Shown here: piece by piece, positions 1,097 to 23,098 of the stretch
Position numbering within the stretch: position 1 is the stretch's first letter
How the letters are laid out: the number at the start of each line of letters is the position of its first letter
Origin: an uncultured Thermoleophilia bacterium
GTDB lineage: Bacteria > Actinomycetota > Thermoleophilia > Solirubrobacterales > 70-9
Assembly (NCBI GenBank): GCA_963824245.1
Contig: CAWGON010000002.1
Coordinates: 1,436,887-1,500,886, forward strand
Length of the DNA stretch: 64,000 nt
Reading direction: 5' to 3'
Translations under genes and position numbers: made by a program
The notes under the pieces: generated by a model
Database searches by the model: none
The model's input: the letters and a program-made list of their open reading frames with translations, nothing else
Told to the model about the DNA's origin: nothing

Positions 1097-1100
1097 AGGC

Positions 1101-1106
1101 GATACT
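1101..1106 (+). promoter_or_regulatory. -10-like hexamer GATACT, 6 nt upstream of the corA GTG (possible leaderless start)
   Basis: The sequence reads GATACT-gagcgg-GTG(1113). It belongs to the recurrent hexamer-N6-8-start pattern in this window. Confidence 0.3.
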
Positions 1107-1112
1107 GAGCGG

Positions 1113-2083
1113 GTGATCGTCAACTGCGCCGTCTACGAGGCCGGGCAGCGCCGCGAAGGCGAGCTGCCGCTCGGCGAGGCGGGCAGGGCGGCGCGCGGCG
1201 CCGGCTCGTTCGTGTGGCTCGGGGTGGTCGAACCCTCGGCCGAGGAGTTCGAGGCGATCGCCGAGCGAGTTCGGCCTGCACGAGCTCGCGGTCGAGGACG
1301 CGGTCAAGGCCCATCAGCGGCCGAAGGCCGAGCTCTACGGGGACACGCTGCTGGTCGTCGTCAAGACCGCCCGCTACGTCGACACCGACGAGGTGATCGA
1401 GGTCGGTGAGCTGCTGCTGTTCGTCAACCCCGCCTTCGTCATCAGCGTCCGCCACGGGGCCGGCGAGCTGAGCGCCGTGCGCAAGCGGGTCGACCAGCGC
1501 CCCGACCTGCTGCGCCACGGGGCCGGCGTGGTCCTCTACGCGATCGTCGACCACGTCGTCGACGACTACGAGGAGGCCGCCCAGGGGTCGACGTCGACAT
1601 CCAGGAAGTCGAGCGTCAGGTCTTCTCGCCCGACGGCCACAACCCGGCCGAGCGCATCTACAAGCTGGAGCGCGAGGTGCTCGACTTCCACACCGCGGTG
1701 GCGCCGCTCTCGGAAGTCGTCGACCAGGTGGCGCGCGGGCACTACGAGGTGGTCGCCGGAGGGGCTGGCGGAGTACTTCCGCGACGTCCACGACCACCTG
1801 CGCCGGGTCGAGCGGCCGGATCCGCGGCTTCCGCGATCTGCTCGGCAGCGCCCTGCACGCGAACCTGACCCAGGTCTCGGTGCGCCAGAACGAAGACATG
1901 CGGAAGATCTCCGCCTGGGTCGCGATCCTCGCCGTCCCGACCTTGATCGCCGGCATCTACGGGATGAACTTCGACAACATGCCGGAGCTGCACTGGCACT
2001 TCGGCTACCCGATGGTGATCGCGCTGATCCTGGTCGTCTGCTCGCTGCTCTACCTGCGCTTCAAGCGCTCCGGCTGGCTGTAG
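1113..2083 (+). CDS. corA: Magnesium/cobalt transporter CorA; frame-interrupted as given
   Basis: N-terminus MIVNCAVYEAG..., then HELAVEDAVKAHQRPK and LLLFVNPAFVISVRHG. The C-terminus reads AILAVPTLIAGIYGMNFDNMPE (GMN motif) plus a second TM helix. The pieces lie in three frames. Confidence 0.8.
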
Positions 2084-2120
2084 GGCGTTCGCTCACCGGC
2101 CCGGCGCCGATCCGCCACGG

Positions 2121-2144
2121 GCGCCACGGGGCCGTGGCGGCGCC
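2121..2144. terminator. Short GC-rich imperfect hairpin between convergent corA and the 2147-2509 gene
   Basis: The arms are gcgccacgg / ccgtggcg(g)cgc. There is no U-tract. Confidence 0.25.
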
Positions 2145-2146
2145 GC

Positions 2147-2509
2147 TCAGCGCTGGTGCGTCGGCGCCGGCAGGTCGAGCCGGCGGCGCGCCGCGGCGAC
2201 CGCGGAGACGGAGGAGCGGCAGGCCTTGGCGATGATCCCGTCGCCGTGGTCGGGCCGGCGACTGACCTCGAACTCGATCAGCGCCGCCCGTCGCAGTTTC
2301 GCGCGGGCGTCGATCGTCGAATCCTCCGGAGCCGCGTCGAGCGCGGCCTGGGCGGCGCGCTCGCGGCGGCAGATCAGGCAGTAGGTGCCTTCGCTGGAGT
2401 TGTCCCAGGTATTGGGCAGCTCGACCTTCTCGCCGTTCATCTGGCTGATCGAGACGCCGCAGTGGTCGCAGGTCCACTTCTTGGCGGTGGTGCTGGTTGC
2501 AGTGCTCAT
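2147..2509 (-). CDS. Small zinc-ribbon protein with a possible C-terminal HTH; hypothetical
   Basis: Intact 120-aa ORF with CDHC...CLIC (CxxC...CxxC) and an IAKACRSSVSAVAAARRRL helix-like segment. Its start overlaps the helicase stop (ATGA at 2506-2509). Confidence 0.55.
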   Translation of the reverse strand: MSTATSTTAKKWTCDHCGVSISQMNGEKVELPNTWDNSSEGTYCLICRRERAAQAALDAAPEDSTIDARAKLRRAALIEFEVSRRPDHGDGIIAKACRSSVSAVAAARRRLDLPAPTHQR

Positions 2510-3747
2510 GCGGGTGCCTTCGTTCGGTTGCGATTGCGGTTGCGGTTGCGGCGCCGGCGTTTCTGGGCGGGCGCGCCTCCGGAGCTGTCCTCGCTGTTGC
2601 CGTTCATCTTCACGTTGGCGCCGGTCGACGCCGCGGTGCTGCCGCCGCGCCCCTGCTCGAACTCGCGCGAGAGGCCGAGGTCGCGGGCGATCCGGCGCAT
2701 ATCGGCTGTCTGGTCGGCGAGCACGAAGCTGATCCCGGTGCCGCGGCTGCCGGCCCGGCCGGTGCGGCCGATCCGGTGCACGTAGGCGTCCTGGTCGCCG
2801 GGGGCGTCGAAGTTGATCACGTGGGTGACCCCGGCGACGTCGATCCCGCGGGCGGCGACGTCGGTCGCGATCAGGGTGTCGACCTCGCCGCGCTCGAAGC
2901 GGGCCAGCGCCCGTTCGCGCTGGCTCTGGCTCTTGTCGCCGTGCATCGCCACCGACTCCAGCGACTGTTTGCGCAGTCGTTTGACCAGCCGGTCGGCGCC
3001 GCGCTTGGTGCGGACGAAGACCAGGGTGCGGCCGCGGTCGGCGTCGCGCAGGCTGCCGACCAGGAGGTCGAGCTTGGCGGCGGGGGACTCGACGTGGACG
3101 AAGCTGTGCTCGATGTCCGCCTTCTCGTCGACCGCCGGCTTCTGGGTGTGGCGGCGCGGGTTCCTGGTGTAGGCGGCGGCGAGCTCGCCGGTAGCGCCCT
3201 CCAGGGTGGCGGAGAAGAAGAGCGTCTGGCGGTCGTCGGGCGTCTGCTTGACGATCCGGCTGACGGCCGGCTTGAAGCCCATGTCCAGCATCCGGTCGGC
3301 CTCGTCGAGGACGAGGATCTCGACCTGGGCGAGGGAGAACACGCCGCGGGCGATCAGGTCCTCGAGCCGGCCCGGGGTGGCGACGACGATGTCGGCGCGG
3401 CGGGCGGCCTTGGTCTGGGGGCCGAAGCCGACGCCGCCGTAGACGGCGGCGATCTCGAGCCCGCGGGCTCGGCAGATCGAGGAGAGCTCGTCGACGATCT
3501 GGCTGGCCAGCTCGCGGGTCGGGGCGAGGACGAGGCCGCCGACGCCGGCGGCCGGCTCGATCAGGTCGACCATCGGGATCCCGAAGGCAAGCGTCTTGCC
3601 GGATCCGGTCGGGGACTGGACGAGCAGGTCATGACCGTCGAGGGCGTCGTCGACGACCATCTCCTGGACGGGGAAAGGTTGGGTGATGCCGCGCGACGCG
3701 AGCGCGTCTACGACAGACTCGGAGATGCCGAGATCGGCAAATGACAT
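2506..3747 (-). CDS. DEAD-box ATP-dependent RNA helicase with an Arg/Asn-rich C-terminal tail
   Basis: Motifs SPTGSGKT, DEAD, SAT and HRIGRTGRAG are present. The ATG at 3747 (MSFADLG) is preceded by AAGGAG. The tail reads ...KRRRRNRNRNRNRTKAPA. Confidence 0.9.
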   Translation of the reverse strand: MSFADLGISESVVDALASRGITQPFPVQEMVVDDALDGHDLLVQSPTGSGKTLAFGIPMVDLIEPAAGVGGLVLAPTRELASQIVDELSSICRARGLEIAAVYGGVGFGPQTKAARRADIVVATPGRLEDLIARGVFSLAQVEILVLDEADRMLDMGFKPAVSRIVKQTPDDRQTLFFSATLEGATGELAAAYTRNPRRHTQKPAVDEKADIEHSFVHVESPAAKLDLLVGSLRDADRGRTLVFVRTKRGADRLVKRLRKQSLESVAMHGDKSQSQRERALARFERGEVDTLIATDVAARGIDVAGVTHVINFDAPGDQDAYVHRIGRTGRAGSRGTGISFVLADQTADMRRIARDLGLSREFEQGRGGSTAASTGANVKMNGNSEDSSGGAPAQKRRRRNRNRNRNRTKAPA

Positions 3748-3918
3748 GAAAGTTCTGTGCTCCTTATGTGTGCAGCGAGTGGGGAGATCCAGCAGCCCCA
3801 AAACGCCTTCAGCGCACAGAGGAAACGGAACCTCTCGGGTGGCGTTGAGCCGAACCCGACCCACACAGAGTAGCAGCCCCCCGCTTTTGGCCTGCTAACC
3901 AGCCTCTTTTCGCTCGTT

Positions 3919-3956
3919 TCCGAGCTTGGGCTGTCCCTGGCGAGCCCAAGCTCGGA
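3919..3956. other. 14-bp-stem hairpin in the region between the helicase start and the TPR gene
   Basis: tccgagcttgggct - 10 nt - agcccaagctcgga, read directly from the sequence. Confidence 0.3.
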
Positions 3957-4375
3957 GGCGCGGAGCGGGGGATGCGGGCATGTCGGGTGCCTACACTTCT
4001 CCAATGCCTTCCGATGCGGTCGCCGTCCCCACCTACACGCTGTACAGGCGTGGGATCGAGCTGCTCGAAGACGGCGATTTCGAGCACGCGACCGAGCCCC
4101 TGGCCGAGGCGGCGCGGCGGGTGCCGGAGAAGGCCTCGGTGCGCGAGGCGCTCGGCCGCGCCTACTTTCGCTCCGGCCGCTTCGCCAAGGCCGCGGTCGA
4201 GTTCGAGGCGGTGGTCGAGGCCCACCACGTCAACGACTTCGCCCACTTCTGTCTCGGCCGCGCGCTCTCCCGCACCGGCCAGAAGTCCCGCGCCCGCCAC
4301 CACCTGGCGCTGGCCTCGAACCTGCGCCCGGACCGGCGCGACTACCGCTACTACCGCCGTCTGCTCGACGCCTAG
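3926..4375 (+). CDS. TPR-repeat protein (start uncertain; possibly ATG at 3980)
   Basis: Intact ORF with TPR-like helices: ALGRAYFRSGRFAKAAVEFEAVVE and HFCLGRALSRTGQKSRARHHLALA. Confidence 0.55.
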   Translation: MGCPWRAQARRRGAGDAGMSGAYTSPMPSDAVAVPTYTLYRRGIELLEDGDFEHATEPLAEAARRVPEKASVREALGRAYFRSGRFAKAAVEFEAVVEAHHVNDFAHFCLGRALSRTGQKSRARHHLALASNLRPDRRDYRYYRRLLDA

Positions 4376-4393
4376 CTAGCGCGGCGCCGGCCG

Positions 4394-4562
4394 CTAGGAG
4401 GGCTTGGCGAAACTCCCCGGCCGCACCCGGCGGCGGCGGACATAGCGCGGTGCGGCGTCCTCAGTCGGCCAAATAGCTCTGCTATTCGGCCTCCCTGCGT
4501 CCTTGCCCCGCTTGGTCCGGCGCTCGCCGGCCGCAACCGCGAGTTTCGCCAAGCCCTCCTAG
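4394..4562. repeat. 169-bp element bounded by perfect 22-bp inverted repeats, between convergent genes
   Basis: ctaggagggcttggcgaaactc (4394-4415) pairs with gagtttcgccaagccctcctag (4541-4562). There is an inner hairpin ggccaaatagc/gctattcggcc. The right arm contains the peptidase stop codon. Confidence 0.6.
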
Positions 4563-5614
4563 AGCCCGCGGACCAGCTTGCCGACGGTCTCTTCGCCGAA
4601 GTAGGGCCCGTAGGTGCGCTTCTTGTTGTCGAGGTGCAGGTAGGAGTTGACCCCGTTGATCTGGCTGCCGTCTCCGATCAGCCAGCCGCCGCCGCTGGCG
4701 CCCGGCGCCCAGCGGCAGCCGATCGCCAGGGTCGGCGGGCCGGAGAAGCGGTAGGTGAGCGGGTCGTCGCCGAGGTAGTCGGCCTGGCAGCCCTGCATCC
4801 GCTTGGTCTCGCCGGGATAGCCGAAGGTGAGGAACGTCTGGTCGCGCGGCAGCTCGGTGACGATCGTGGCGCCGCCGCCGACCGCGTCGGCGAGGTTGAC
4901 CCCTTCGGGGTTCGGCTTGACGAGGAAGGCGCCGAGGTCGAAGTCGGGGTTGCCGTGCTTGGTCCACTGCTTGGGGGCGAAGATCTTCTCGGAGCGGGCG
5001 ACGAAGGCGCCGAACGGGGCGAGGTCGCCGCTGTAGGCGGGGACGAACTCGAGGAAGTCCGACCAGACCGCGCGGTGCCCTTCTTCGGGGCCGCTGTTGA
5101 CGCAGTGGCCGGCGGTGAGGACGAGCTGGCGGGTGGGGGTGTTGATCGCGGTTCCCGAGCAGAAGCCTTGGAGCTTGCCGCGGCGGATGAAGATGCGGCC
5201 GTTGACCGAGTAGGGCGGGACTTCGGGGGTCGGCACGCGGGTGAAGCTGGCGGCCGCCTTGGCCGGGGCGGCGATGCCGACCCGCAGCCGCGTCTCGCCG
5301 CCGCTGTCGACGACCAGGTCGAGCGGGCGCGCCGCCGCCATCCGCTGCGGCGTCCAGTAGTCGAGGACCCGTTGCGCCGGCGCCGCGGAGGCGCTGGCGC
5401 CGTTGCCCGCGGGGCCCGGCGCGTGGGTCCGGAAGCCGGCGTCGGCGCTGAGCGGGAAGGCGAGCAGGGCAAGGGCAACCAGCGCGAGCAGGCTCGCGAT
5501 CGTTACCGAGGGGCCCCCTGCCGGGCGAACGGGATCCGCACCCATCGCCCCGGAGAATAGAGATCGGGGGGCGGCGGCCGACGCATGTCCGAGCCGGGTC
5601 GCCGGGCGGGTCAT
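4559..5614 (-). CDS. Secreted trypsin-like (S1 family) serine peptidase
   Basis: Signal-like VTIASLLALVALALLAFPLSADA. The catalytic context is LTAGHC, DFDLGAF and PGASGGGW. The ORF is intact. Confidence 0.75.
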   Translation of the reverse strand: MTRPATRLGHASAAAPRSLFSGAMGADPVRPAGGPSVTIASLLALVALALLAFPLSADAGFRTHAPGPAGNGASASAAPAQRVLDYWTPQRMAAARPLDLVVDSGGETRLRVGIAAPAKAAASFTRVPTPEVPPYSVNGRIFIRRGKLQGFCSGTAINTPTRQLVLTAGHCVNSGPEEGHRAVWSDFLEFVPAYSGDLAPFGAFVARSEKIFAPKQWTKHGNPDFDLGAFLVKPNPEGVNLADAVGGGATIVTELPRDQTFLTFGYPGETKRMQGCQADYLGDDPLTYRFSGPPTLAIGCRWAPGASGGGWLIGDGSQINGVNSYLHLDNKKRTYGPYFGEETVGKLVRGL

Positions 5615-6326: not shown

Positions 6327-6371
6327 CGCGGCAGACCTTTGTCCCGGAAACCGGGACAAAGGTCTGCCGCG
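6327..6371. repeat. 45-bp perfect palindrome (21-bp arms, 3-nt loop), copy 1 of 2
   Basis: cgcggcagacctttgtcccgg-aaa-ccgggacaaaggtctgccgcg. A near-identical copy lies at 49260-49304. Confidence 0.85.
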
Positions 6372-6382
6372 GGCCGTGGGGA

Positions 6383-6388
6383 TAGACT
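6383..6388 (+). promoter_or_regulatory. -10-like TAGACT upstream of the cobalamin riboswitch
   Basis: TAGACT lies exactly 11 nt downstream of the palindrome. The spacing is the same as at the trpS copy. Confidence 0.3.
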
Positions 6389-6389
6389 C

Positions 6390-6575
6390 GCCGGCGTAAA
6401 TACGGTCGGTGGTCAAGGGAAGTCCGGTGCGAAGTCCGGCGTGGTCCCGCCACTGTGACCGGGTCAAGGAAGTCGCAGGCGCCTCGCGCGCCGGCCACTG
6501 GGGAGGACACAGATCCCCCGGGAAGGTGCGGCCAACCAACCCCGGAAGCCAGGAGACCTGTCCCCGGCCAGCCAA
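6390..6575 (+). promoter_or_regulatory. Cobalamin (B12) riboswitch
   Basis: ggtcaagggaagtccggtgcgaagtccggcgtggtcccgccactgt matches the conserved core. GCCACTGGGGA...GGGAAGG is also present, and the B12 box gaagccaggagacctgtcc lies at 6545-6563. It sits directly upstream of the ATG at 6604. Confidence 0.85.
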
Positions 6576-6603
6576 TACAACCCTCGAGGAAAGGGTGGCT
6601 TAA

Positions 6604-7359
6604 ATGCCAAGAACCATTCCAGTAAGGCTGGCTGCCGCGTGCGCGCTGGTAGTTGCCATGTCCCTGACGATCGCCGCCGGTGCATTTGCGAAGAGCTCAG
6701 CCGACCTCCGCGTCGTCGGTTCCGGCGGCAAGATCCTCAGCGAAAAGACGCTCGCCACCGCGACCACCTCGGTCAAGACCAGCTCGAAGGCGACCTGCTT
6801 CGGCAAGGGCACCGGCGGCAGCGGCGACTCCGTCTCGATCAAGGGCAACACGGCGCTCGGCCTGCTGGCCCGGGCCTCGCTCTCGACCTCGGCGTTGGAG
6901 CCGCTGCTGATCAGCGACAGCTTCGACTTCGGCCTCGCGCTCTGCGGGGTCGGCGGCAGCGTCGCCAAGGGCGGCACTTCCTGGTACCTGAAGGTCAACC
7001 ACAAGGGCGCTCTCGGTGGGCGCCGACGAGGCGAAGATCAAGGCCGGCGACGAAGTTCTCTTCGCGCTGGCCGAATCGGACCCGAAGACGTTCGTCTACC
7101 CGGAAGAGCTGGCGCTGACCGCGCCGGCGAAGGCGACCGCGGGGATGGCGTTCACGGTCCCCGCCTACACCTACGACGAAAAAGGCAAGCGCAAGCCGGT
7201 GGCCGGCGTCGAGGTCAGCGGTGCCGGCGCGGTCACCGCCGCCAACGGCAGGACCACGGTGACGCTCCGAAGCCGGCACAGCTGCTGGCGACGAAGGGCG
7301 ACCTGATCCCCGCCCGGGCGGCTGGTCTGCATCGGTGGCAAGTGCCCCGCCGGTAGCTA
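6604..7359 (+). CDS. Secreted DUF4430 (transcobalamin beta-domain-like) protein with a C-terminal Ig/CarboxypepD_reg-like segment; frame-interrupted
   Basis: Signal-like LAAACALVVAMSLTIAAGAFA. The sequence ...GGTSWYLKVNHKGA/VGADEAKIKAGDEVLF matches the DUF4430 pattern. There is a frame break near 7010 and another near 7265. Confidence 0.6.
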
Positions 7360-8305
7360 GGGCCGTGCGCCGGAGCCGTGGCACGGCGGTCGCGACGGCG
7401 CTGCTTCTGGCAGCGCTCGCGGCCGCCGGCTGCGGCCTCGGCCCCGGCGCCGACGTCGGCTCGGTCGAGCTGACGGTGACGCGGGAATTCGGGAGCCAGC
7501 CGGTGCTCTCGAGCTCGGTCGAGGCGAACGAATCCGACACCGTGATGCGCGTGCTCGAAGGCGAGGCCGAGATCGAGACCCGCTACGGCGGCGGCTTCGT
7601 GAAGTCGATCGAGGGCACCGAGGAAGGCCGTCGCGGCGGCCGTCCCTACGACTGGTTCTTCTTCGTCAACGGGGTCGAGTCGCCGATCGGCGCCGCCGAT
7701 GTACGAGCTGCACGGCGGCGAGCGGATCTGGTGGGACTACCGCGACTGGGCGGCGACCAACCGGGTCCCGGCCGTGGTCGGCTCCTGGCCGGCGCCGTTC
7801 AGCGACGGCTACGAAGGCAGGCGCACCCGGTGGCGGTCGAATGCCTCGGTGGCGGCGGGGCCTGCGCGGAGGTGCGGGCGGCGCTCGACGGCGAAGGCGT
7901 GGCGCTCGCCGCGGGCGACCCCGAGGGCGCGATCCGCGTCCTGGTCGGGCCCTGGGCGCAGGTGCGCGAGGACCCGGCCGCGGCGCTGATCGAGGACGGT
8001 CCGGAAGAAAGCGGCGTCTACGCGGAATTCGAGCAGGGGAGCGGCGGCCAGGGCGTCGGCGGCGGCTTCGGCTGGTCGGGCTCGGCGTAGACGGCGAGCC
8101 GGCCCGCGAGCTCGGTCCCGACGCCGGCCTCGTCGCCGCCACCAGGCGCTACGAAGCGCCGCCGGTCTGGGTCGTCACCGGGGGGACGCCAGCGGCGGTG
8201 CAGGCCGCCGCCGAAGCTGCTCGACCGCGACAGCCTGCGCGACCATTACGCGGTGGCAAGCGAAGCAGGGAAGGAGACGCCGCTGCCGGTGCTCGGGTCC
8301 GATGA
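7335..8305 (+). CDS. DUF4430 lipoprotein; frame-interrupted
   Basis: Lipobox LAALAAAGCG. The sequence RYGGGFVKSIEGTEEG..RPYDWFFFVNGVESPIGAAD / YELHGGERIWWDYRDW is a typical DUF4430 core. There are several frame breaks. Confidence 0.6.
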
Positions 8306-9254
8306 GGTCGCCGTTCGCCTACATCCCGCGGCCGGGGCCGCTCCAGGCCGCTTCGCCGGGCGCCGCGGTCGCCTACCTCGGCGCGCTGGTCGTCGTCGCC
8401 TTCCTCTACTCGAGCCCGCTGGTGCTGGTCGCCGCCGGGCGCCGCGGTGACGATCGCCGGGCTGCTGGCGGGGGCGCGGACGGCGGTGCGGGCGGCGCTG
8501 CGGATGGGCCTCGGCCTGGCGCTGCTGATCGTCGTCGTCAACGCCCTGGTCGTCAGCCGCGGCGAGACGGTGCTGGCGCGGCTCGGCGACTGGCCGCTGT
8601 TCGGCCAGGTCGACGTCACCCTGGAGGCGATCGTCGCCGGCCTCTCGATCGGCCTGCGGGCGGCGGTGACGATGGTCGCCTTCGCCGTCTACTCGGCCTG
8701 CGTCGATCCCGACCGGGTGCTGCGGGCGCTGCGGCCGCTGGCCGGCCGCTCGGCGCTGACCGCGACCCTGGTCTCGCGGCTGGTCCCGGTCGCCGCCGCC
8801 GACGCCGCCCGCCTGCGCGACGCCGCCCGCCTGCGCGGCCCGGGTGCCGCCGAGGTCGGCAAGGCGGCGCTGGCCCGGCGCCTGCTCGCCGGCTCGCTCG
8901 ACCGCGCCGTCGACGTCGCCGCGACCCTGGAGCTGCGCGGCTACAGCCTCGAGCGCCCGCGCCGACGCGCGTTCCGTCTTTGGGCGCCCCAGCGCCCGAA
9001 ACGACGGAAGCGCTCGCGCTTCGACCAGCGCTTCTACCTCGCCGGGGTGGTCCTGGTGGCGGCGATCGTCGGCAAGGCGCTCGGCGCCGACGACTTCCAC
9101 ACCTACCCGCGGATCGAGCTCGGCCCAGGGACCGGCGGCGCTCGCGCTCTCGGCGCTGCTGGTCGCGAGCGGGCTGGTGCCGCTGCGTCGCCGCCCGCGG
9201 CGGTCGCCGGCGTCGTGTCGCCCTCGCCGGGCTCTGGAGGCGTCCCGTGTCTGA
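8302..9254 (+). CDS. ECF transporter transmembrane (T) component, EcfT/CbiQ-like; frame-interrupted
   Basis: Multi-TM protein: MRSPFAYIPRPGPLQ..., then ...LLIVVVNALVVSRGETV..., VTLEAIVAGLSIGLRA and RALRPLAGRSALTATLVSRLVP. The ATGA overlap at 8302 links it to the previous gene. Confidence 0.6.
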
Positions 9255-10920
9255 GCTGGCGATCCGCCGCGGCGCCGCTCCCGCGCTCGCCGTCGAGGGG
9301 CTCACCTACGCCTATCCGCGAGGCCACCGGCCCGGCGCTCTCCGGCGTCTCCCTCGAGGTCGCCGCCGGGGGAGTTCGTCCTGCTCGCCGGCCGCTCGGC
9401 CTCGGGCAAGTCGACGCTGCTGAAGCGCGGCCTGCGGCCTGGTTCCGCACTTCCACGGCGGCGAGATCGAGGGGACGGTCGCGGTGGCCGGGATCGACGC
9501 GATCGCCGCCGGCCCGGGCGAGCTGCCGGCCGCGGTCGGCTACGTCGCCCAGGACCCGGAGACCCAGGTCGTCTCGACCACCGTCGCGGCGGAGATCGAG
9601 CTGCCGCTGGAGATGCGCGGCGACGCCGCCGGCCGACCGCGCCCGGGCGGTCGAGGAGGTGGCGCTGGCGCTGGCGATCCCGCACCTGCTGGGCCGCACC
9701 GTCGACACCCTCTCCGGCGGCGAGCTGCAGCGGGTGGCGCTGGCGGCGGCGCTGGTGACCCGGCCCGCGGCTGGTGCTGCTCGACGAGCCGACCTCGCAG
9801 CTCGACCCGGTCGCCGGCGACGAGCTGATCTGGCTGCTGCGGCGGCTCAACGAGGAGTGGGGGGTGGCCGTCCTGCTCGCCGAACACCGGCTCGAGCGCT
9901 GTCTCGCCGCCGCCGACCGGGTGGTCGCGATGGTCGCGGCGGGCGGATCGCCTTCGACGGCGCCCCGCGCGAGTTCCTCGCCTGGTCCCAGCGCGCCGAC
10001 CCGGCCCTGAGACGCCCGGCCGCGCGCCTCTTCTCCCTGGCCGGGATCACGCCGCTGCCGGTCGGCGTCCGCGCCGCGCGCCGCAAGGCGCTCGAGGAGC
10101 GGGCCCGGCCACCGCTGTCCCCCACCCGGGGAAGGGTCCGGGGCGGCGAAGTCTCCCCGCCCGCTCCGCCCCGCAAGCGCAACGCCGCGTCGACGCCGCG
10201 AAGGGCCTCTGGGTCGAGCTCGAGCGGCGACGAGCGGCCCCACGACGTCCTCCGCGGCATCGACCTCGAGATCCGCCGCGGCGAACGGGTCGCCCTGATG
10301 GGCCGCAACGGCGCCGGCAAGAGCACCCTGCTGCGCGCCGCCGCCGGGCTCGTCGACCCGGCCGCCGGCAGGATCGAGGCCGCCGAGCGGGATCGCGCTG
10401 CTGACCCAGAACCCGAGCGACTACCTGGTCCGCGAGCGGGTCGGCGACGAGCTGCCGGGCGAGGCCGGGCGCGGCGGCGCTGCGCGCGGTCGGCCTCGAG
10501 CACGCGATCGACGCCGACCCGCGCGACCTCTCCGGCGGCGAGCGGCAGCGCCTCGCCCTGGCGATCGCCCTCGCCGGCCGCATCGAGGGCGAGCGGCTGC
10601 CCGGCCTCGTCGCCCTCGACGAGCCGACCCGCGGCATGGACCGCGGCCGCAAGGACGAGCTCGATCGCCCTCATCGGCCGCCTCGCCGGCGCGGGGCGCC
10701 GCGCGTCGTCATCGCCACCCACGACGTCGAGTTCGCCGCCGCGTTCGCCGACCGCGTCGTCCTGCTCGGCGACGGCGTGGTGATCGCCGACGGCGCCGCC
10801 GCCGAGGTCCTCTCCGGCGGCTGGTACTTCGCCACCGAGGTCGCCCGCGTCCTCGACCTGCCCGGCGTCGTCACCCCCGAGCAGGGCGCCGCCGCGCTCG
10901 CCGCCGAGGGGCCGGGATGA
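9247..10920 (+). CDS. Duplicated ABC ATPase (fused EcfA1-EcfA2 / CbiO-like); frame-interrupted
   Basis: Two ABC cassettes. The first has GEFVLLAGRSASGKSTLL, LSGGELQRVALAAAL and LLDEPTSQLD. The second has LMGRNGAGKSTLL, LSGGERQRLALA and ALDEPTRGMD. There are many frame breaks. Confidence 0.7.
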
Positions 10921-11500
10921 GCTGGCAGCTGGTCAGCTTCCTGATCCTCGGCGCCGTCCTGCTCGGCGGCTTCGCCTGGTACGAGCGCTCGCGGCCGCCG
11001 GCGCAGGTCGTCGCCCTGGTCGCCGCGCTGGCGGCGCTGGCGATCGCCGGCCGGATCGCCTTCGCCGCCTTCCCCAACGTCAAGCCGACCACCGACATCG
11101 TCATCTTCGCCGGCTACGCGCTCGGCCCGGCGCCGGGCTTCGCGGTCGGCGCCCTCGCCGCGCTGGTCTCCAACTTCTGGTTCGGGCAGGGACCGTGGAC
11201 CCCGTGGCAGATGGCGGGCTGGGGCCTCTGCGGGGTGCTCGGCGCGGCGCTGGCGCTCGGCGGTCGCAACGCCGGCCGCTTCAGCCTCGCCGCGGTCTGC
11301 GGACTTGGCGGCGTCGCTTTACGGCGCTCTGCTGAACTTCTCTCTGATGGCGACTTATGGAGGCGAGCTGTCGCTGGAGCGCTTCGGCGTGCTCTCGAGC
11401 GCGGGCGATCCCGTTCGACGTCGCCCACGCGGTCGGCAACGTCGCCCTGGCCCTGGTCGCCGGGCCGGCGATGGTGCGGATGCTCGCGCGCTTCCGCCGA
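10917..11500 (+). CDS. Putative ECF substrate-capture (S) component; frame-interrupted, 3' boundary approximate
   Basis: Hydrophobic multi-TM sequence: MSWQLVSFLILGAVLLGGFAWYE..., FPNVKPTTDIVIFAGYALGP, GPWTPWQMAGWGLCGVLG and IPFDVAHAVGNVALALVAGP. The ATGA overlap with ecfA is at 10917. Confidence 0.5.
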
Positions 11501-11559
11501 CCGCTTCGAATGGGAGCGGGGCGGAGGGGCCGCGCCGGAGCCGCCGCGACCGCCCGAGC

Positions 11560-12912
11560 CCCCGCCCCGGCGCCCGCGGCCCGCCCTGCGCGGCGCCGGC
11601 ATCGCCGCCCTGGTCGTCGTCTCGGTCGGGCTCGGCGCTGCTGGTGCCGGGACGCGCCGCGGCCGCCGGCGCCGACAGCGCCAAGCAGTGGCTGGTCTCG
11701 GTCCAGAACGAGGACGGCGGCTTCGGCAGCTCCCCCGAAGACCGGTCGGGGGTCGAGATGACCGCCTGGGCGATGCTGGGGCTGGAGGCCGCCGGCCGCA
11801 ACCCCCACGACGTCGCCCGCGGCGCCAACGACCCGGTCACTTTCCTGCGCGCCCATGTCGGTCAGCTGAGGAACCCCGGCGACCTCTCCCGCACGATCCT
11901 CGCCCTGCTCGGGGCCGGTGCCGACCCGCGCCAGTTCGGCGGCCGCGACCTGGTCGAGGAACTGCGCGGCTTCCGCTTCGACAACGGCTCCTACGAACGC
12001 TGGCCCAACTGGACCGCCTACGCGGTGATCGCCCTGCGGGCCGCCGACTCGGCGGGCGGCACGGAGAAGTCCCTGGAATGGCTGCGCAACGTCCAGAACG
12101 ACGACGGCGGCTGGGGCAACCAACCCGGCAGTCGCAGCGACGCCGAGGCGACCAGCTCGGTCCTGCAGGCGCTCTCGCCCGACTCGAAGGCCTCCGGCCG
12201 CGGGCTGAAGTACCTGCGCGACACCCAGCAGTCCAACGGCGGCTACCGGGTCGGCGGCAACGGCGCGATCAACACCCAGGCGACGGCCTGGGCGATCCAG
12301 GGGATCCTCGCCGCGGGCGGCGACCCCGGCTCCTTCGAGAAGGGCGGCTCGACCCCGTTCGACTACCTCGCCGCCAATCAGGCCGCCGACGGCCACTACC
12401 GCTACTCGAAGTCCAGCGACCAGACCCCGGTCTGGGTGACCGGCCAGGTCCTGGTCGCCGTCTCCCGCGACTACCTCCCGGTGGCCGCGCCGCCGCGCCA
12501 GAAGCAGAGCACGCCGCCGGCCTCCAGCACCGGCACGGCCGCGGCGCTGCCGCCCCTGCCCGCCGCGTCGGTCTCCCCGGCTCCGCAGCCGGAAGCCCCG
12601 CAGATCCCCTCCGGCTCGACCGGCGGCGTCCCGTCCGGCGGCGGCCCGCCCCCGTTGGGATCCGCCGCGCCCGGCGGCTCGACCGGCGCCCTCCCGCCGC
12701 AGGCGGGCCGCGACGAACCCGAGCCCTCGACCGCCGAACCGGAGCCGGAGGTGAGCACCGCGGACAGCGAATTGGCGCAGTCCTCCAGCGACGAGGGCTC
12801 CGAGGCCAGCGTCGGCGGCTCGATCGCCGCCGGGCTGCTCGCCGGCGCCGTCCTCTTCGGCCTCGGCCTGCTCGCCCGCAAGGGTTGGATGCGCTGGCGC
12901 TACGGTCTATAG
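11560..12912 (+). CDS. Prenyltransferase/squalene-cyclase-repeat (alpha/alpha toroid) protein with a Pro-rich linker and C-terminal TM anchor; 5' boundary approximate
   Basis: Four repeats: QWLVSVQNEDGGFG, EWLRNVQNDDGGWG, KYLRDTQQSNGGYR and DYLAANQAADGHYRY. The C-terminus reads ...GGSIAAGLLAGAVLFGLGLLARKGW. It may be fused to the S component, because no stop separates them once frames are corrected. Confidence 0.6.
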   Translation, partial: PRPGARGPPCAAPASPPWSSSRSGSALLVPGRAAAAGADSAKQWLVSVQNEDGGFGSSPEDRSGVEMTAWAMLGLEAAGRNPHDVARGANDPVTFLRAHVGQLRNPGDLSRTILALLGAGADPRQFGGRDLVEELRGFRFDNGSYERWPNWTAYAVIALRAADSAGGTEKSLEWLRNVQNDDGGWGNQPGSRSDAEATSSVLQALSPDSKASGRGLKYLRDTQQSNGGYRVGGNGAINTQATAWAIQGILAAGGDPGSFEKGGSTPFDYLAANQAADGHYRYSKSSDQTPVWVTGQVLVAVSRDYLPVAAPPRQKQSTPPASSTGTAAALPPLPAASVSPAPQPEAPQIPSGSTGGVPSGGGPPPLGSAAPGGSTGALPPQAGRDEPEPSTAEPEPEVSTADSELAQSSSDEGSEASVGGSIAAGLLAGAVLFGLGLLARKGWMRWRYGL

Positions 12913-13422
12913 ATGGACGTCGAGACCGCGATCCGCACCCGCCGCACCCACAAGGCCTTCGCGCCGGAGCCGCTCGGCCCGGAGCTGCTCGGGGAGCTGC
13001 TCGAGCTCGCCGACTGGGCGCCCAACCACCACCTCACCGTCCCCTGGCGCTTTCGCGTCGTCGGCCCCGCCGCGCTGGCGCGGCTGAAGGAGGCGGCCGG
13101 GCCCGAGGGCGCCGCCAAGCTCGACCGCTGCCCGACCCTGGTCGTCGTCTCCTGCCGGCTCGGCGGCGATCCCATCCAGGACGAAGAGGACCTGCACGCG
13201 ACCGCGGTCGCCTCCTACATCGTCCTGCTCGCCGCCCACGCCCGCGGCCTCGCCGGCTACTGGCGGACCCCCGGGCTGCTGCGCTCCGAGCAGGGGCGGG
13301 CCGCCGTCGGCGTCGCCCCCGGGGAGCGAATCGTCGGCCTCCTGCACCTCGGCCACCCGCGCCAGGAGCGCCCGGTGCCGCCGCGACCGCGGACCGAACC
13401 GACCGTCCTCTTCCTCGATTAG
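12913..13422 (+). CDS. Nitroreductase-family protein
   Basis: Intact 169-aa ORF with AIRTRRTHKAF...APNHHLTVPWRF, which fits the nitroreductase fold signature. Confidence 0.7.
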   Translation: MDVETAIRTRRTHKAFAPEPLGPELLGELLELADWAPNHHLTVPWRFRVVGPAALARLKEAAGPEGAAKLDRCPTLVVVSCRLGGDPIQDEEDLHATAVASYIVLLAAHARGLAGYWRTPGLLRSEQGRAAVGVAPGERIVGLLHLGHPRQERPVPPRPRTEPTVLFLD

Positions 13423-13430: not shown

Positions 13431-15112
13431 ATGCTGACCCGCGGACGCGCAGCTCGAGGAGATCGCCGGCCAGCACTTCGAGGTGGTGGTGATCGGCGGC
13501 GGGATCACCGGCGCCGGGGTCGCCCTCGACGCCGCCTCGCGCGGCTACTCGGTGGCGCTGCTGGAGCGCGGCGACTACGCGGTCGGCACCTCCAGCCGCT
13601 CCTCGAAGATGGTCCACGGCGGCCTCCGCTACCTGCAGAACTTCGACCTCGGCCTGGTCCGCGAGGCGCTGCTGGAGCGCCAGCTGATGGTCCAGCTGGC
13701 GCCGCACCTGGTCTACCCGACGCCTTTCCTGGTCGCCGCCCTCGGCGAGGAGCGCCGCGACCGCAAGCTCGGGGTCGGGCCTGGACATGTACGACGTGAT
13801 GGCGACCACGCCGGGTCGGCCGCGTCCAGCCGCGAGCTGCGCGCCTCCAAGGACGAGGACGAGCAGTTCTCCTGGTCGCCGGACCGCCACCGCACGATCG
13901 ACCGCGAGGAGGTGCTGGAGCTGGTCCCGGCGCTGGCCCCCCGCGACCCCAAGGACGCCTACCTCTTCTACGACTGCCAGACCGACGACGTGCGGCTGGT
14001 CCTGACCGTGCTCGGCGAGGCCGAGCGCTTCGGCGCGGTCAGCCTCAACGGCGCCGACGTGGTCGAGGTGCTGACCAGGGACGGGCGCGCCAACGGCGTC
14101 GCCTTCGTCGAGGCCGACTCCGGCGAGCGGCTCGAGGTCGGCGCCGACCACGTCGTCAACGCGACCGGCGTCTGGGCCGACCAGATCCGCCCCGAGGTGG
14201 TCGAGGAGGAGGACGTGCCGCGGATCGCGCCCAGCCGCGGCACCCACCTGCTGCTCGACCAGGCCGACCTGCCGATGGGCAGCGCCGCCTGCATCGTCCC
14301 GGCCGGGGAAGGGCGGATGATCTTCTCGCTGCCCTGGTACGGGCGGACGCTGATCGGCACCACCGACAACGACTTCGACGGCGACATCACCCACCCGCGC
14401 CCCGGCGAGGACGACGTCGAGTACCTGCTGGACGCGGTCAACGAGTTCTTCGGCGACGCCGCTCGGCCGAGTCCGACCTGGTCGGCGCCTACGCCGGCGT
14501 GCGGCCGCTGATCTCCAGCGGCGACCCGCGCAAGTCGGTCGACATCTCGCGCAAGGCGGAGCTGTACGAGACCTCCTCGGGGATGCTGACGATCACCGGC
14601 GGCAAGCTCACGACCTGGCGGCGGATGGCGAAGCAGACCGTCGACCGCCTGGTCCTGCGCGAGGGCCGCGAGGCGCCCTGCCACACGGCCGAGATCCCGC
14701 TCGGGATGGAGGCCCGCCCGGGCGACCTCGAGGCGCCCGAGGGGGTGGGGGAGGAGGCGGTCGACCAGCTCGCCTTCCGCTACGGCCACGCCACGCGCCG
14801 CGTCCTCGACCTCGCCCGCGAGCGACCCGAAGCTGGCGCGCGCCGATCGTCCCCGGCCGTCCCGACCTGCTGGCCGAGGTGGTGCTCGCGGCTCGCCACG
14901 AGCAGGCCCGCAGCGTCGCCGACGTGCTGCTGCGGCGGACCCGGCTGGGGATCCTGGCGGCGCCGGAGCTGCGCAGCGCCGCCGCGGTGCGGCCGGTCGC
15001 CGAGCTGCTCGGGGCCGAGCTCGGCTGGGACGAGGCCCGGGTCGGGCGCGAGTCCGAGGCCTGGCTGGAGGCAGCGGCGGCGGAGGGAATCGACCCCGCA
15101 AAGAGCCGTTGA
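13431..15112 (+). CDS. glpD: FAD-dependent glycerol-3-phosphate dehydrogenase; frame-interrupted
   Basis: FEVVVIGGGITGAGVALDAASRG (FAD fold), SSRSSKMVHGGLRY, ...YDCQTDDVRLV..., GVRPLI and the C-terminal VADVLLRRTRLG. There are about 4 frame breaks. Confidence 0.8.
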
Positions 15113-15113
15113 A

Positions 15114-15119
15114 TAACCT
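15114..15119 (+). promoter_or_regulatory. -10-like TAACCT, 6 nt upstream of the ATG at 15126
   Basis: The sequence reads TAACCT-gcgccg-ATG. Confidence 0.3.
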
Positions 15120-15125
15120 GCGCCG

Positions 15126-16019
15126 ATGACCAAGGCCGAGCTGGAATCCAAGCACCTGTCCGACCTCCACGCCCTCGCCGCCGAGGCCGGCGTCGAGCGC
15201 TTCCGGATGCTGACCCGCAACGAGCTGATCGCGAAGCTGAGCGGCGGCAACGGCGGCGGTGGAGGCGGAGGTCGCCAGGCCCAGCCCGCCGGCGAGCGTG
15301 GCGAGCGCCCGGCACGCCGGCGCCGTCGCAGCCGCGGTGGTGGCGGCGGAGGCGGCGGGGGCGGTCGCGAGCGCACCGGCGGTGGCGAGAGCTCCGACGA
15401 AGTCTCCGGTCGCGGCGACGACCTCCGCAAGGAGGCCCTGGGGCAGGAGGGCCAGCGCGAGCCCGCCGCCCCGACTCCGACTCCGACCCCGGCCCCGACC
15501 CCCGCGACCCCGGCCGCGGGGTCCGAGCGCCCGCGTCGCCGCCGTCGCCGCCGCTTCGGCCGCCGTGGCAAGGAGGGTGTGACGATCCAGGACCTGCTGC
15601 TGCCGCCCGAGGCCGGGCGCCAGGCGATCCTCTGCGCCGAGACCCGCGAGGGCTGCACCGAGCTGCTGCGCGGCGTCGCCGCCGACCTCGCGGCCGACTC
15701 CAAGGGTCCCGACCCGGTGGTCCTGCTGATCGACCCCAGCCCCGAGGAGCTGGCCGACTGGAAGCGCGAGGCGCCGCAGGCGGAGATCGTCGCCGCCGGC
15801 CAGGCCCGCCACGCCACCGACGCCCTCGCCCAGGCCGGCGAACCGCGCCGGCGAGCGGCGAAGACGTGATCCTCCTGGTCGACTCGCTGACCCGCCTCGC
15901 CGAGCGACTTCGGCGACACCGACACCGCCAAGGAGCTCTTCGACGCCGGCCGCGCCCAAGGCCCCGCCGGAGGCGGCTCGCTGACCGTCGTCGCCGCCCT
16001 AGAGCGCCCCGCCAACTAG
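15126..16019 (+). CDS. Rho_N-domain protein with an R/G-rich linker and a Rho ATPase-core remnant lacking the P-loop; frame-interrupted near 15865 and 15905
   Basis: MTKAELESKHLSDLHALAAEAGVERFRMLTRNELIAKL matches Rho_N. The sequences VVLLIDPSPEELADW, DVILLVDSLTRLAE and GGGSLTVVAALE parallel Rho LLIDERPEEV, DVVILLDSITRLAR and EGGSLTIIATAL. The Walker A position reads AETREGCT. Confidence 0.5.
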
Positions 16020-16029
16020 CCGCTCTCCC

Positions 16030-16224
16030 GAGCTGCGCCGCATCGCCTACCGGCGTTCCGGCCTCAGGGGAGGTCCGGGGGTGGGGCTGAAGCGTCTTGT
16101 GGCTTTTCGCGGGGCTCGCCCGCCGCAAGGCCGGGACTCGATCCTCGAAAAGACTAAGCGGAAGCCCCACCCCCGGGCCTCCCGTGGCTCCGCCTACCGC
16201 CGGTAGGCGATGCGGCGCCAGCTC
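16030..16224. repeat. 195-bp element made of long imperfect inverted repeats, between convergent genes
   Basis: gagctgcgccgcatcgcctaccggcg (16030-16055) pairs with cgccggtaggcgatgcggcgccagctc (16198-16224). The arms continue inward: ggaggtccgggggtggggct pairs with agccccacccccgggcctcc. The right arm overlaps the 3' end of the minus-strand gene. Confidence 0.6.
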
Positions 16225-16677
16225 GGCTCTTTGGAGAGCTCGATCAGCTCGTCGGCTGCGGTCCGGCTGGACGTAGCCGAAGGTCTGGGTGCGCTCGTCG
16301 AAGACGACGTCGAGCTCGCCCTCCTTGACCCGCTGGTCGAGCCAGGCGCCGCGGAAGACGAGGCGGCGGATCCAGTGGACGAGGCTGCGGTTGGAGGGAC
16401 CGACCAGGTCCTCCCAGTTCTCGTTGATGTGCTCGCCGAGGGGGGAGCTGGGCTCGGCGATCTCGCCGCTGACGGCGAGGTCGAGGAGGTCGTCGAGCTC
16501 CTCCTGGCTGAGCCCCTGGTCGACGAAGGCGAGCTTCACCGCGGCCTGCTCGACCCGCTGGCCGAAGTCCTCCTCGTTGAAGGCGAAGCGGAGCTCCCCG
16601 TACTCGAGCACGTAGTCGGAGCCAGACTCGTAGTTCCCTCTGCGGGTCGTTTTCTTTTCCATGAAGTTGAAGCCCAT
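16194..16677 (-). CDS. Acidic hypothetical protein; one frame break near the 3' end
   Basis: MGFNFMEKKTTRRGNYESGSDYVLEYGELRFAFNEEDF...HWIRRLVFRGAWLDQRVKEGELDVVFDE. The frame-corrected C-terminus is ...ELIELSKEPSWRRIAYRR*. I recognise no family. Confidence 0.45.
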
Positions 16678-16853
16678 CTGCCTTCGCGGAGCCCGGCGTC
16701 AGCAGGTGCATGATCTTGCCGATCATCGTAGTCCCGTGCCTGCTCGGGACAGGTCGCTGAACGCGGGGTTGCACCCGTGACGGGCTTTCGGGAGGGCGCC
16801 GGTTCGCCCGGCAGCCCGGGGGAGAGGATCGCCACGCCGGCCCTTTGCCGGGG

Positions 16854-17194
16854 ATGGAGGAGCGAGGACTGGCGAGGCGACTGGCGCGGCTGCCCCGGCA
16901 GCTGGCGCTCGGGCGCGAGGTCCCGGTCGCCGCCGGCCTCCGCGCCCGCCTGCTCGGGCTGGCCGGCCTCGACGCGCGAGGAGGCCGGCGCCGGGCTGCT
17001 GATCCCGCGCTGCGCCGCGCGTCCACACCTTCGGCATGCGCTTCGCGCTCGACCTCTACTTCCTCGACCGCGAAGGGGCGACGCTGGCGGTCCGGCGCGG
17101 GGTGCCGCCGCGCCGCTTCGTCGCCCACCGCGGCGCCGCCGCGGTGCTCGAGATCCCGCCGGCGGGGGGAGAGTTCGCCGCGCCCCGCCCTTAG
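16854..17194 (+). CDS. DUF192-family protein; frame-interrupted
   Basis: The sequence ...GLLIPRCA / VHTFGMRFALDLYFLDREGATLAVRRGVPPRRFV...AAAVLEIPPAGG matches the DUF192 pattern. Confidence 0.5.
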
Positions 17195-17202
17195 GCCCGT
17201 CG

Positions 17203-17922
17203 ATGCTGCCCCGGAGAGAAGAGATCGCCAGCGTCGTCGTCTGCGAGGACGACGACGTCACCCTCGACCTGCTCTGCGATCACCTCGCCGCCGACCGCTT
17301 CGGGGTCCTGCCCGGCGCCGAGCGCCTCCGACGCGCTGCGCCTCTGCCGCTACAACCAGCCCGACCTGCTGCTGCTCGACCTCTCGCTGCCCGACGCCTC
17401 CGGCCTCGACGTCCTGCGCGAGATCCGCGAGGCCGACGGGGTCGAGTCGCGCTTCGACCCGCGCCTGCCGGTGATCGTCCTGACCGGCCGCGGCGCCGAC
17501 GACCGACCGCGTCCGCGGCCTCGACTCCGGCGCCGACGACTACGTCGCCGAAGCCGTTCTCGATACGCGGAGCTGCGGGCGCGGATCGGCGCCGTCCTGC
17601 GCCGCCGCGCACAGCCGCCGCGAGGGCCCGAGCCGGGTCGGCGAGCTGATCGTCGACCCGATCCGCCGCCGGGTCACGGTCGGCGGCCGCGAGGTCGCCC
17701 TGGCGAAGAAGGAGTTCACCCTGCTGCGCGTCCTCGCCACCGACCCGACCCGGGTCTTCACCAAGGAGGAGCTGCTGCGCGACGTCTGGGGCTTCAGGGC
17801 GCCCGAGCAAGACGCGGACCCTGGACTCCCACGCCAGCCGGCTGCGCCGCAAACTCGACCCCGAGCACGGCCGCTACGTGGTCAACTGCTGGGGGATCGG
17901 CTACCGGCTGATCGACGGCTGA
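17203..17922 (+). CDS. OmpR-family response regulator; frame-interrupted
   Basis: The receiver domain has VVVCEDDDVTLDLL, PDLLLLDLSLPDASGLDVLREIR and VIVLTGRG. The winged helix has ELIVDPIRRRVTVGGREVALAKKEFTLLRVLA and TLDSHASRLRRKL...GIGYRL. Confidence 0.75.
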
Positions 17923-17946
17923 GGGTCCTGCCGGGTCCTGAAACGA

Positions 17947-17983
17947 CGACGCCCCCGGGCGATCGCTCGCGTCGGGGGCGTCG
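17947..17983. terminator. Bidirectional hairpin terminator between the response regulator (+) and the ArsR-family gene (-)
   Basis: cgacgcccccg - 15 nt - cgggggcgtcg (11-bp stem). On the minus strand it is followed by tcgttt. Confidence 0.5.
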
Positions 17984-18009
17984 GAAGCTCGGCGGCCGGG
18001 GTTGGCGGG

Positions 18010-22974: not shown

Positions 22975-23098
22975 ATGGATCTATTGTTTAGGCATCACTG
23001 AGTACGCAATCTCGACCAACCTGATCAGCTGGGTTCCGGCGAAGGAAGGCATCTTCGGCTGGCCCCTCGACGGGCCGGAGGCCGAGGCGGTCGAACGG

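Follow-up and report, generated by a model that had tools for sequence, protein, structure and literature searches.

A cobalamin-riboswitch-controlled operon of Solirubrobacterales predicted to encode a dedicated ECF importer whose CbrT-like S component is fused, at gene level, to an alpha/alpha toroid

The stretch of DNA analyzed here (the window) comprises 64,000 nucleotides (nt) of contig CAWGON010000002.1 from an uncultured bacterium of the order Solirubrobacterales, and its G+C content is 73%. Near its beginning lies a cobalamin riboswitch, behind which stand five co-directional, overlapping genes. These encode two proteins with DUF4430/SLBB domains (A and B), the energy-coupling factor (ECF) transporter proteins EcfT and EcfA-EcfA' (EcfA-A'), and an S component joined to an alpha/alpha toroid (S-toroid). 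The features of the locus are listed below (aa, amino acids; TM, transmembrane; AF2, AlphaFold2; P0003 is an intact relative of the S-toroid protein).

6393-6579, plus strand: cobalamin riboswitch aptamer (RF00174), found by covariance match, with the B12 box at approximately 6545-6563 within it
6580-6603, plus strand: expression platform ACCCTCGAGGAAAGGGTGGCTTAA, with an ACCCT/AGGGT hairpin and the Shine-Dalgarno-like sequence GGAAAGGGTGG, followed by the ATG at 6604
6604-7360, plus strand: gene A, encoding a secreted product of about 250 aa, in which a partial DUF4430/SLBB domain is followed by a beta-rich domain at the C-terminus; signal peptide ...AGAFA/K; three frame breaks
7365-8305, plus strand: gene B, encoding a lipoprotein of about 312 aa that combines a DUF4430/SLBB domain with a C-terminal domain of alpha/beta type; lipobox LAALAAAG-C; several frame breaks
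8302-9254, plus strand: EcfT, CbiQ-family TM coupling subunit of about 317 aa (Pfam CbiQ, PF02361)
9247-10920, plus strand: EcfA-EcfA', fused ATPase of about 555 aa with two ABC_tran domains
10917-12912, plus strand: S-toroid fusion gene, joined frames, with the stop codon TAG at 12910-12912
10917-11520, plus strand: CbrT-like S-component domain with six TM helices at the N-terminus of the fusion, homologous to 6FNP chain A
11598-11649, plus strand: TM7, signal-peptide-like (basic n-region, hydrophobic core, A-x-A), corresponding to an AF2 helix at 226-240 in P0003
11668-12483, plus strand: predicted extracytoplasmic (alpha/alpha)6 toroid of the squalene-cyclase/prenyltransferase superfamily (Pfam PF13243, PF13249, and PF00432; AF2 model; profile)
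12484-12912, plus strand: Pro/Ser/Gly-rich disordered stalk (about 12484-12819), TM anchor (about 12820-12876), and basic tail RKGWMRWRYGL, read from the translation

Simple prediction of open reading frames gave a disordered picture downstream of the riboswitch. An earlier note on this DNA had held that the reading frames need correction, and the periodicity of G+C at third codon positions (GC3) revealed about 25 frame switches on one coding strand between 6604 and 11640. Protein domains were called on the frame-corrected translations of the joined segments, which contained no in-frame stops and had a GC3 of 0.9-1.0 in every segment. Within the window, frame switching was dense at 1-2150, 6700-11650, and 14450-23000, and the sequence was clean beyond 23 kb. 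A syntenic locus with 82% DNA identity (L001) is intact and contains five clean genes for proteins of 252, 312, 319, 550, and 666 aa, with a riboswitch before the operon and genes for a nitroreductase and GlpD after it, as in the window. When compared with L001, the breaks in the window were mainly isolated +1 insertions outside homopolymers, one of them within the riboswitch.

Related loci came from a scan of species-representative genomes, which returned at least 586 stretches with a relative of the toroid; the counts of gene order and riboswitches given below rest on the best 80 of these, all from metagenome-assembled genomes (MAGs) of Solirubrobacterales. The leader of the operon, which the earlier note had read as a B12 riboswitch, was analyzed with cmscan. 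The results showed a match to RF00174 at 6393-6579 of the plus strand, with a score of 66 bits (gathering score 31.5, E = 4e-14), covering the full length of the model (positions 1-189 of 189) and constituting the sole Rfam match in the whole 64 kb. Both the 'core' (6411-6456) and the B12 box (6545-6563, GAAGCCAGGAGACCTGTCC) named in that note lie inside the match. The end of the riboswitch is 25 nt from the start of gene A, and in all 61 of the 61 related loci the riboswitch stands 25-31 nt 5' of this gene; Rfam confirmed it in each of the seven related loci tested. The aptamer sequence is 92% conserved among eight relatives. The riboswitch was found also in the leaders of L001 and of the distant relative L082, the copy of the latter scoring 66.9 bits.

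The 24-nt stretch from the aptamer to the ATG, ACCCTCGAGGAAAGGGTGGCTTAA, is almost unchanged across approximately 60 loci. Since the hairpin that follows the aptamer holds the Shine-Dalgarno (SD) sequence and has no T-run, the riboswitch is predicted to control the operon at the level of translation. Inspection by eye for kissing-loop complementarity between the platform loop and the aptamer loops revealed no conserved partner.

Two further observations concern the leader region. There is an extra base in a riboswitch loop at approximately 6434, which is absent from all eight relatives. A perfect 17+3+17 palindrome, GCAGACCTTTGTCCCGG-AAA-CCGGGACAAAGGTCTGC, is located at 6331-6367, 25 nt 5' of the riboswitch, and a near-identical second copy is found at 49264-49300, flanked by a Ku-like gene on the minus strand and a gene for tryptophanyl-tRNA synthetase on the plus strand. 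The four arm matches were reached by none of 100 shuffles. Both copies are without a T-run, and L001 has no palindrome at the equivalent place. The palindrome is a REP-like (repetitive extragenic palindromic) element or a shared operator, and because of the genes that flank its second copy, it is unlikely to be a B12-related operator.

The genes of the operon overlap by start and stop codons (ATGA, or GTG...TGA) at the junctions between B and EcfT, EcfT and EcfA-A', and EcfA-A' and S-toroid. Pfam searches with the frame-joined proteins yielded two DUF4430 domains, CbiQ, two ABC_tran domains, a sub-threshold match to an ECF S family, and SQHop_cyclase_C/N together with Prenyltrans, in agreement with the gene set claimed in the earlier note. 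DUF4430 corresponds to the C-terminal SLBB domain of transcobalamin (PMC4350170, PMC1796856), a domain that contacts B12 in that protein (PMC1796856). With a gathering score of 23.8, it was found in gene B at 51 bits and in gene A at 25.5 bits, in the latter at profile positions 39-70 only. Gene A has an intact orthologue of 252 aa in L001, and a search with gene B returned over 120 homologues with lengths of 305-313 aa. The C-terminal domain of gene B was modeled by AF2 at a predicted local distance difference test score (pLDDT) of approximately 80; a fold search with it gave nothing significant, the best match being BcsB at E = 8e-3, and when the family profile of gene B was compared with PDB sequences, transcobalamin was not reached.

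The energizing proteins were assigned by similar means. EcfT scored 50 bits with CbiQ (PF02361; gathering score 25), and a tblastn comparison of L001 EcfT with the window gave 88-91% identity across three frames. In EcfA-A', ABC_tran was detected in three stretches (E = 3e-44), amounting to two domains in one chain, and the Walker A, signature, and Walker B motifs were intact once the frames had been corrected. The best NCBIfam matches of EcfA-A' from L001 were ECF_ATPase_1/2, whose scores of 253 and 231 bits fall short of the equivalog cut-offs (315 and 330). The operon thus holds what characterizes a group I ECF transporter, i.e. EcfT, two ABC ATPase domains, and an S component, and the composition supports the prediction that the locus encodes a dedicated importer of this group.

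Downstream of the operon, a gene for a nitroreductase-family protein of 169 aa (12913-13422) begins on the base after the S-toroid stop codon. As such a gene is present 3' of S-toroid in 69 of 81 related loci, it may be co-transcribed with the operon. Its best NCBIfam match was the YdjA-like NAD(P)H nitroreductase family, at 41 bits (cut-off 183). An assignment as BluB was rejected, the match being weak, N-terminal, and well below the cut-off (34.6 bits vs. 150).

The S component could be related to a transporter of known function. With the S domain of an orthologue as query, the only significant phmmer match in PDB was chain A of 6FNP (E = 3.5e-12), residues 26-200 aligning to residues 6-180 of a 182-aa chain entitled 'Membrane protein', which, judged by its length and by the alignment, we take to be CbrT. 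The 6FNP structure is the ECF-CbrT complex of Lactobacillus delbrueckii, a transporter of cobalamin and cobinamide (Santos et al. 2018, PMC5997447). At the level of sequence, then, the S domain is homologous to CbrT, an experimentally proven B12 S component.

The earlier note had suggested that no stop codon separates the S component from the toroid and that the two may be one polypeptide. We found that over 100 proteins of 650-680 aa match the joined sequence with 100% coverage and 60-75% identity, and that S and toroid lie in a single stop-free frame, with a linker of 24-59 aa, in 75 of 76 related loci. Judged from these alignments, S and toroid are one polypeptide at the gene level. The Pro-rich stalk and the C-terminal membrane anchor, which the same note had described, were seen both in the translation and in the AF2 model of P0003, where residues 530-632 (approximately) are disordered and a C-terminal helix comprises residues 634-664. 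The C-terminal residues W659, Y664, and G665 are invariant.

TM7, which follows the S domain, may carry the chain to the outside. An A-x-A sequence immediately precedes the toroid in 102 of the 105 members of the clade, the same layout occurs in divergent fusions, and the segment resembles the N-termini, i.e. the signal peptides, of standalone toroid proteins. TM7 may therefore contain a signal-peptidase site, and because it is laid out like a cleavable signal peptide, the mature products of the fused gene may be two chains.

The toroid gave matches above the gathering scores to SQHop_cyclase_C (PF13243), SQHop_cyclase_N (PF13249), and Prenyltrans (PF00432), and it contains QW-type repeats. 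In the AF2 model of P0003, the domain consists of 12 helices (residues 250-525) at a pLDDT of 95-98. When a toroid profile was compared with PDB, the matches included squalene-hopene cyclase (SHC; 1e-39), drimenyl-PP synthase (1e-36), the farnesyltransferase beta subunit (1e-10), and the thioester-containing domain (TED) of complement (1e-4). The top Foldseek matches were the single-domain class II cyclases 8paj and 8pak (E approximately 7e-7), and the 50 significant matches (E <= 1e-3) comprised terpene cyclases, prenyltransferase beta subunits, and glycosidases. What the toroid has in common with the alpha domain of transcobalamin is fold class only.

The acid motif of the cyclases was surveyed in the wider family. 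DxDD[TS] is kept in 39 of the 150 toroid family representatives (P0241-P0390), including all the single chains of DUF4430 and toroid, and the domains concerned are predicted to be extracellular. The counterpart of the motif in the window is located at approximately 12120-12140.

The earlier note had also linked the toroid gene to the riboswitch and ECF genes, and this synteny held in every related genome examined. The two outcomes by which computation could have refuted the idea of that note, a leader that fails the covariance model and a toroid gene lacking this synteny, therefore did not occur. The order of A, B (with both domains), EcfT, EcfA-A', S, and toroid was the same in 61 of 62 loci, the count being restricted to loci with enough upstream DNA. 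In L082, a lineage approximately 40% identical to the window, the riboswitch, DUF4430, CbiQ, ABC-ABC, and S-toroid again occur together. An exhaustive search of representatives gave 5198 toroid clusters, 266 of them at E <= 1e-30. Among the architectures are fusions of S and toroid, secreted toroids that stand alone, giants with three or four toroids, and single chains with DUF4430, in some cases with PKD, and a toroid. Five of the 150 nearest toroid representatives have DUF4430 and the toroid in one chain, which amounts to Rosetta-stone links between the two domains.

Some of the relatives show additional features. Three or four tandem toroids are found in giant proteins of 870-1800 aa (P0282, P0295, P0298, P0331, P0344, P0358, P0363, and P0365). 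The S-toroid protein of L082 (9001-11451) has an extra C-terminal membrane domain of the PAP2 phosphatase family instead of a simple TM anchor, and a gene for a PduO-type cobalamin adenosyltransferase (11431-12030) converges on the S-toroid gene. L083 (positions 3-4776), and also L084, contain three consecutive, overlapping genes, encoding a beta-propeller with DUF4430, a DUF4430-toroid chain of 756 aa, and a periplasmic binding protein of the BtuF/FhuD type; the L083 contig stops before the leader region. Since the DUF4430-toroid chain is followed here by a gene of the BtuF/FhuD type, the putative capture module is paired also with a non-ECF importer, as predicted from this type II ABC component.

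From the riboswitch, the gene set and its domain families, the CbrT homology, the fusion, and the riboswitch linkage, all observed, we propose that the locus encodes a riboswitch-controlled, dedicated ECF-CbrT-type importer of B12 or other corrinoids with an extracytoplasmic capture stage, a reading to which we assign a probability of approximately 0.6. At high intracellular concentrations, adenosylcobalamin or another cobalamin would bind the aptamer at 6393-6579, and the bound aptamer would probably hide the SD hairpin 3-20 nt downstream, blocking translation of the operon. When B12 is scarce, five proteins would be made: secreted A, lipoprotein B, EcfT, EcfA-A', and the S-toroid chain. According to the predicted membrane topology, the toroid would face outward, held on one side by TM7 and on the other by the Pro-rich stalk and the TM anchor. 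Outside the cell, the SLBB domain and the toroid would capture the corrinoid, plausibly sandwiching it as in transcobalamin, and hand it to the adjacent CbrT domain. The latter would topple in the membrane and free the corrinoid into the cytoplasm on ATP hydrolysis by the EcfT-EcfA-A' module. Corrinoid binding by these modules and the hand-off, like the topology and the control of translation, are the steps that we infer. A bolder version, a tethered capture device of three parts in which B12 is clamped between the membrane-fused toroid and the lipoprotein SLBB domain and then handed to a covalently linked CbrT, such pairs being ancestral to animal transcobalamin, must be regarded as tentative and rather doubtful.

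The earlier note had likened the locus to a transcobalamin split across separate genes, and this likeness held in part. The beta half is represented by the DUF4430/SLBB domains of A and B; the alpha half has no specific similarity to transcobalamin, its profile matching SHC (1e-39) instead. The related claim that the two halves are separate, surface-tethered proteins likewise stands in so far as SLBB and toroid are on separate anchored proteins, but the toroid itself is joined to the S component.

Several results weigh against the proposed importer and its capture stage. No chain of transcobalamin, intrinsic factor, or haptocorrin was found among the 50 Foldseek matches of the toroid (E <= 1e-3) or among the best 60 profile matches, and the Pfam family Cobalamin_bind (PF01122) appeared only at E >= 0.088, in three of 18 diverse toroid domains. 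The DUF4430 match of gene A is weak and partial, being limited to the C-terminal half of the domain; when the A family was aligned with DUF4430 of B by hhalign, the same segment was recovered without significance (E = 0.012, probability 3.7%). The DUF4430 part of the gene B model has a pLDDT of approximately 30, which is too poor for comparison with the transcobalamin beta domain or its B12 site. The S domain scored 26 bits with the Pfam family ECF_trnsprt (PF12822), under the gathering score of 30.7, and the S part of the AF2 model is of low confidence. The riboswitch may act on translation or on transcription. Finally, an ECF operon of Lactobacillus sakei with alpha- and beta-like 'transcobalamin subunits' has been tied to heme uptake.

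This last point raises the question of whether the substrate is another tetrapyrrole such as heme, or only a precursor or degradation product of B12; CbrT itself also takes cobinamide. However, a cobalamin riboswitch precedes the operon in 61 of 61 loci as well as in the distant lineage L082, where a cobalamin adenosyltransferase gene adjoins the locus, the S domain matches CbrT, and no heme-related gene or regulator was seen at the locus. Thus, since the coupling to the cobalamin riboswitch is strict, we favor a corrinoid over heme and consider a different substrate quite unlikely. It is also conceivable that the toroid is a surface enzyme, resembling a class II terpene cyclase or a prenyltransferase or modifying corrinoids, rather than a passive binder. 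Its nearest relatives in sequence and fold are all enzymes (SHC at 1e-39, 8pak, 8paj, MstE, and drimenyl-PP synthase), DxDD[TS] persists in 39 of the 150 family representatives, and the fusion of one lineage has gained a PAP2 phosphatase domain. Nevertheless, DxDD is lost in the clade of the window, where it was found in one of 105 members, the window toroid having SDAEAT in its place. Without any cysteine, the toroid has neither a prenyltransferase Zn site nor a thioester; its predicted location is extracytoplasmic and thus remote from isoprenoid diphosphates, and as a single toroid of 270 aa it lacks the second domain of SHC. Because of the loss of DxDD and the lack of a cysteine, an enzymatic function of the toroid appears very unlikely.

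The remaining alternatives concern the products of the genes. If signal peptidase I cuts TM7, the gene fusion would not result in a fused mature protein, but in a seven-TM CbrT and a separate, C-terminally anchored toroid. The fusion would then secure 1:1 co-expression and co-insertion instead of a covalent tether, which is compatible with the importer model proposed above. The n-h-c layout of TM7, the A-x-A sequence before the toroid in the clade and in divergent fusions, and the similarity to the N-termini of standalone toroid proteins all speak for cleavage, as does the conservation of the C-terminal TM anchor, since a domain with a covalent tether could do without it. On the other hand, A-x-A is common by chance in Ala-rich sequence, and internal signal-anchor helices behind multi-spanning domains are often left uncut. 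We regard cleavage as a serious possibility that falls somewhat short of even odds. The locus might also be a decaying pseudogene cluster in the source genome, in which the approximately 25 frameshifts are genuine. The breaks between 6.6 and 11.65 kb are unusually dense, and the public gene call for the source genome is a truncated toroid of 422 aa (P0020, 100% identical). Against this, the corrected frames have no in-frame stop and keep a GC3 of 0.9-1.0 per segment, the catalytic ATPase motifs are intact, and the breaks are almost all isolated +1 insertions. Like breaks were found in GlpD (13453-15103), outside the locus, and in other stretches of the window, and split genes occurred in 16 of the 45 loci from the same long-read MAG series as compared with three of 35 loci from other series. 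This pattern is consistent with an unpolished long-read assembly. The frame breaks are therefore assembly indel errors and not gene decay, which is highly improbable, and it is because of these errors that P0020 is truncated.

ECF transporters are textbook importers that, in the general view, work without a binding protein outside the cell, and the extracellular capture of scarce B12 by Gram-positive bacteria and others with a single membrane is poorly understood. The locus is relevant to whether importers of the ECF type can make use of accessory domains for capture; if tethered capture is true, the ECF importers of a large lineage would depart from the rule that no binding protein is needed. 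The order is abundant in soil, and the relatives are counted in hundreds. With its strictly conserved package, the locus also offers a system in which the prediction of a bacterial transcobalamin, composed of toroid and SLBB domain, can be tested. We consider its value to be moderate: the concept has been published, the evidence comes from sequences and models, and only the fusion architecture seems to be new.

In the literature, the transcobalamin-like SLBB clade of bacteria was defined by Burroughs, Balaji, Iyer, and Aravind in 2007 (PMC1796856). In their account, SLBB is fused to alpha/alpha toroids on either side, a second SLBB paralogue is frequent, and the genes co-occur with CbiO- and CbiQ-like genes in organisms without B12 synthesis, for which the proteins were predicted to be B12 scavengers (PMC1796856). 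The secreted or surface SLBB protein, the second paralogue, the CbiO-/CbiQ-like genes, and the toroid of those operons are all found at the present locus. The toroid described there is fused to SLBB and occurs mainly in low-GC Gram-positives, planctomycetes, and some archaea, whereas in the high-GC actinobacterial order studied here it is carried by the S component; moreover, the 2007 description includes neither an S component nor a riboswitch, both of which are present at the locus. In Lactobacillus sakei, the operon lsa1836-1840 encodes S, the ATPases, T, and two proteins that have been compared with a beta and an alpha half of transcobalamin; by HHpred, the second of these matches geranylgeranyltransferase, and heme was named as the substrate by the authors of the study (bioRxiv 10.1101/864751). 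Compared by description only, this operon resembles the locus in having split alpha and beta proteins among ECF genes, but its alpha-like protein is a separate product, whereas at the locus the corresponding domain is fused to S, two SLBB proteins are encoded, and the genes are preceded by a B12 riboswitch.

Since these two studies had proposed it in outline, the idea of the earlier note is not new; a B12 scavenger made up of a toroid, SLBB, and CbiO/CbiQ had been published by Burroughs et al. in 2007. An experimental test of this 18-year-old toroid and SLBB prediction was not found in the searchable literature, and neither was the fusion of a toroid with a CbrT-type S component, its universality in Solirubrobacterales, or its strict coupling to a riboswitch. 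The gene-level fusion of CbrT and toroid thus seems to be the part that has not been described.

Transcobalamin, intrinsic factor, and haptocorrin share with the locus the logic of a toroid combined with an SLBB beta-grasp domain, and the beta module belongs to the same Pfam family (PF14478). The alpha module of the locus, in contrast, could not be assigned to PF01122, and in fold and profile searches it did not come near to theirs. In the transcobalamin family, the alpha and beta modules form one soluble chain that clamps B12, while at the locus they are on separate membrane- or lipid-anchored chains, single-chain versions being found among the relatives. Furthermore, transcobalamin serves receptor-mediated endocytosis, whereas the modules of the locus are coupled to a transporter. 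The class II terpene cyclases (8pak, 8paj, MstE 6sbb, and the SHC family) provide the best matches to the toroid and have the (alpha/alpha)6 fold and QW-like repeats in common with it; unlike them, the toroid of the locus is devoid of DxDD and cysteine, is predicted to be extracytoplasmic, and is encoded within a transporter operon.

A further close parallel is ECF-CbrT of L. delbrueckii, with which the locus shares whole-length homology of the S component, an EcfT with two ABC ATPases, and the expected substrate, cobalamin or cobinamide. In L. delbrueckii, CbrT is a solitary protein of 182 aa without an extracytoplasmic partner, and its ECF module is common to other S components. At the present locus, by contrast, the operon has a dedicated module of its own, the ATPases are fused, and a riboswitch controls the whole set; a single translated chain unites the S component with an additional TM helix, the toroid, the stalk, and another anchor, and two SLBB proteins are encoded alongside.

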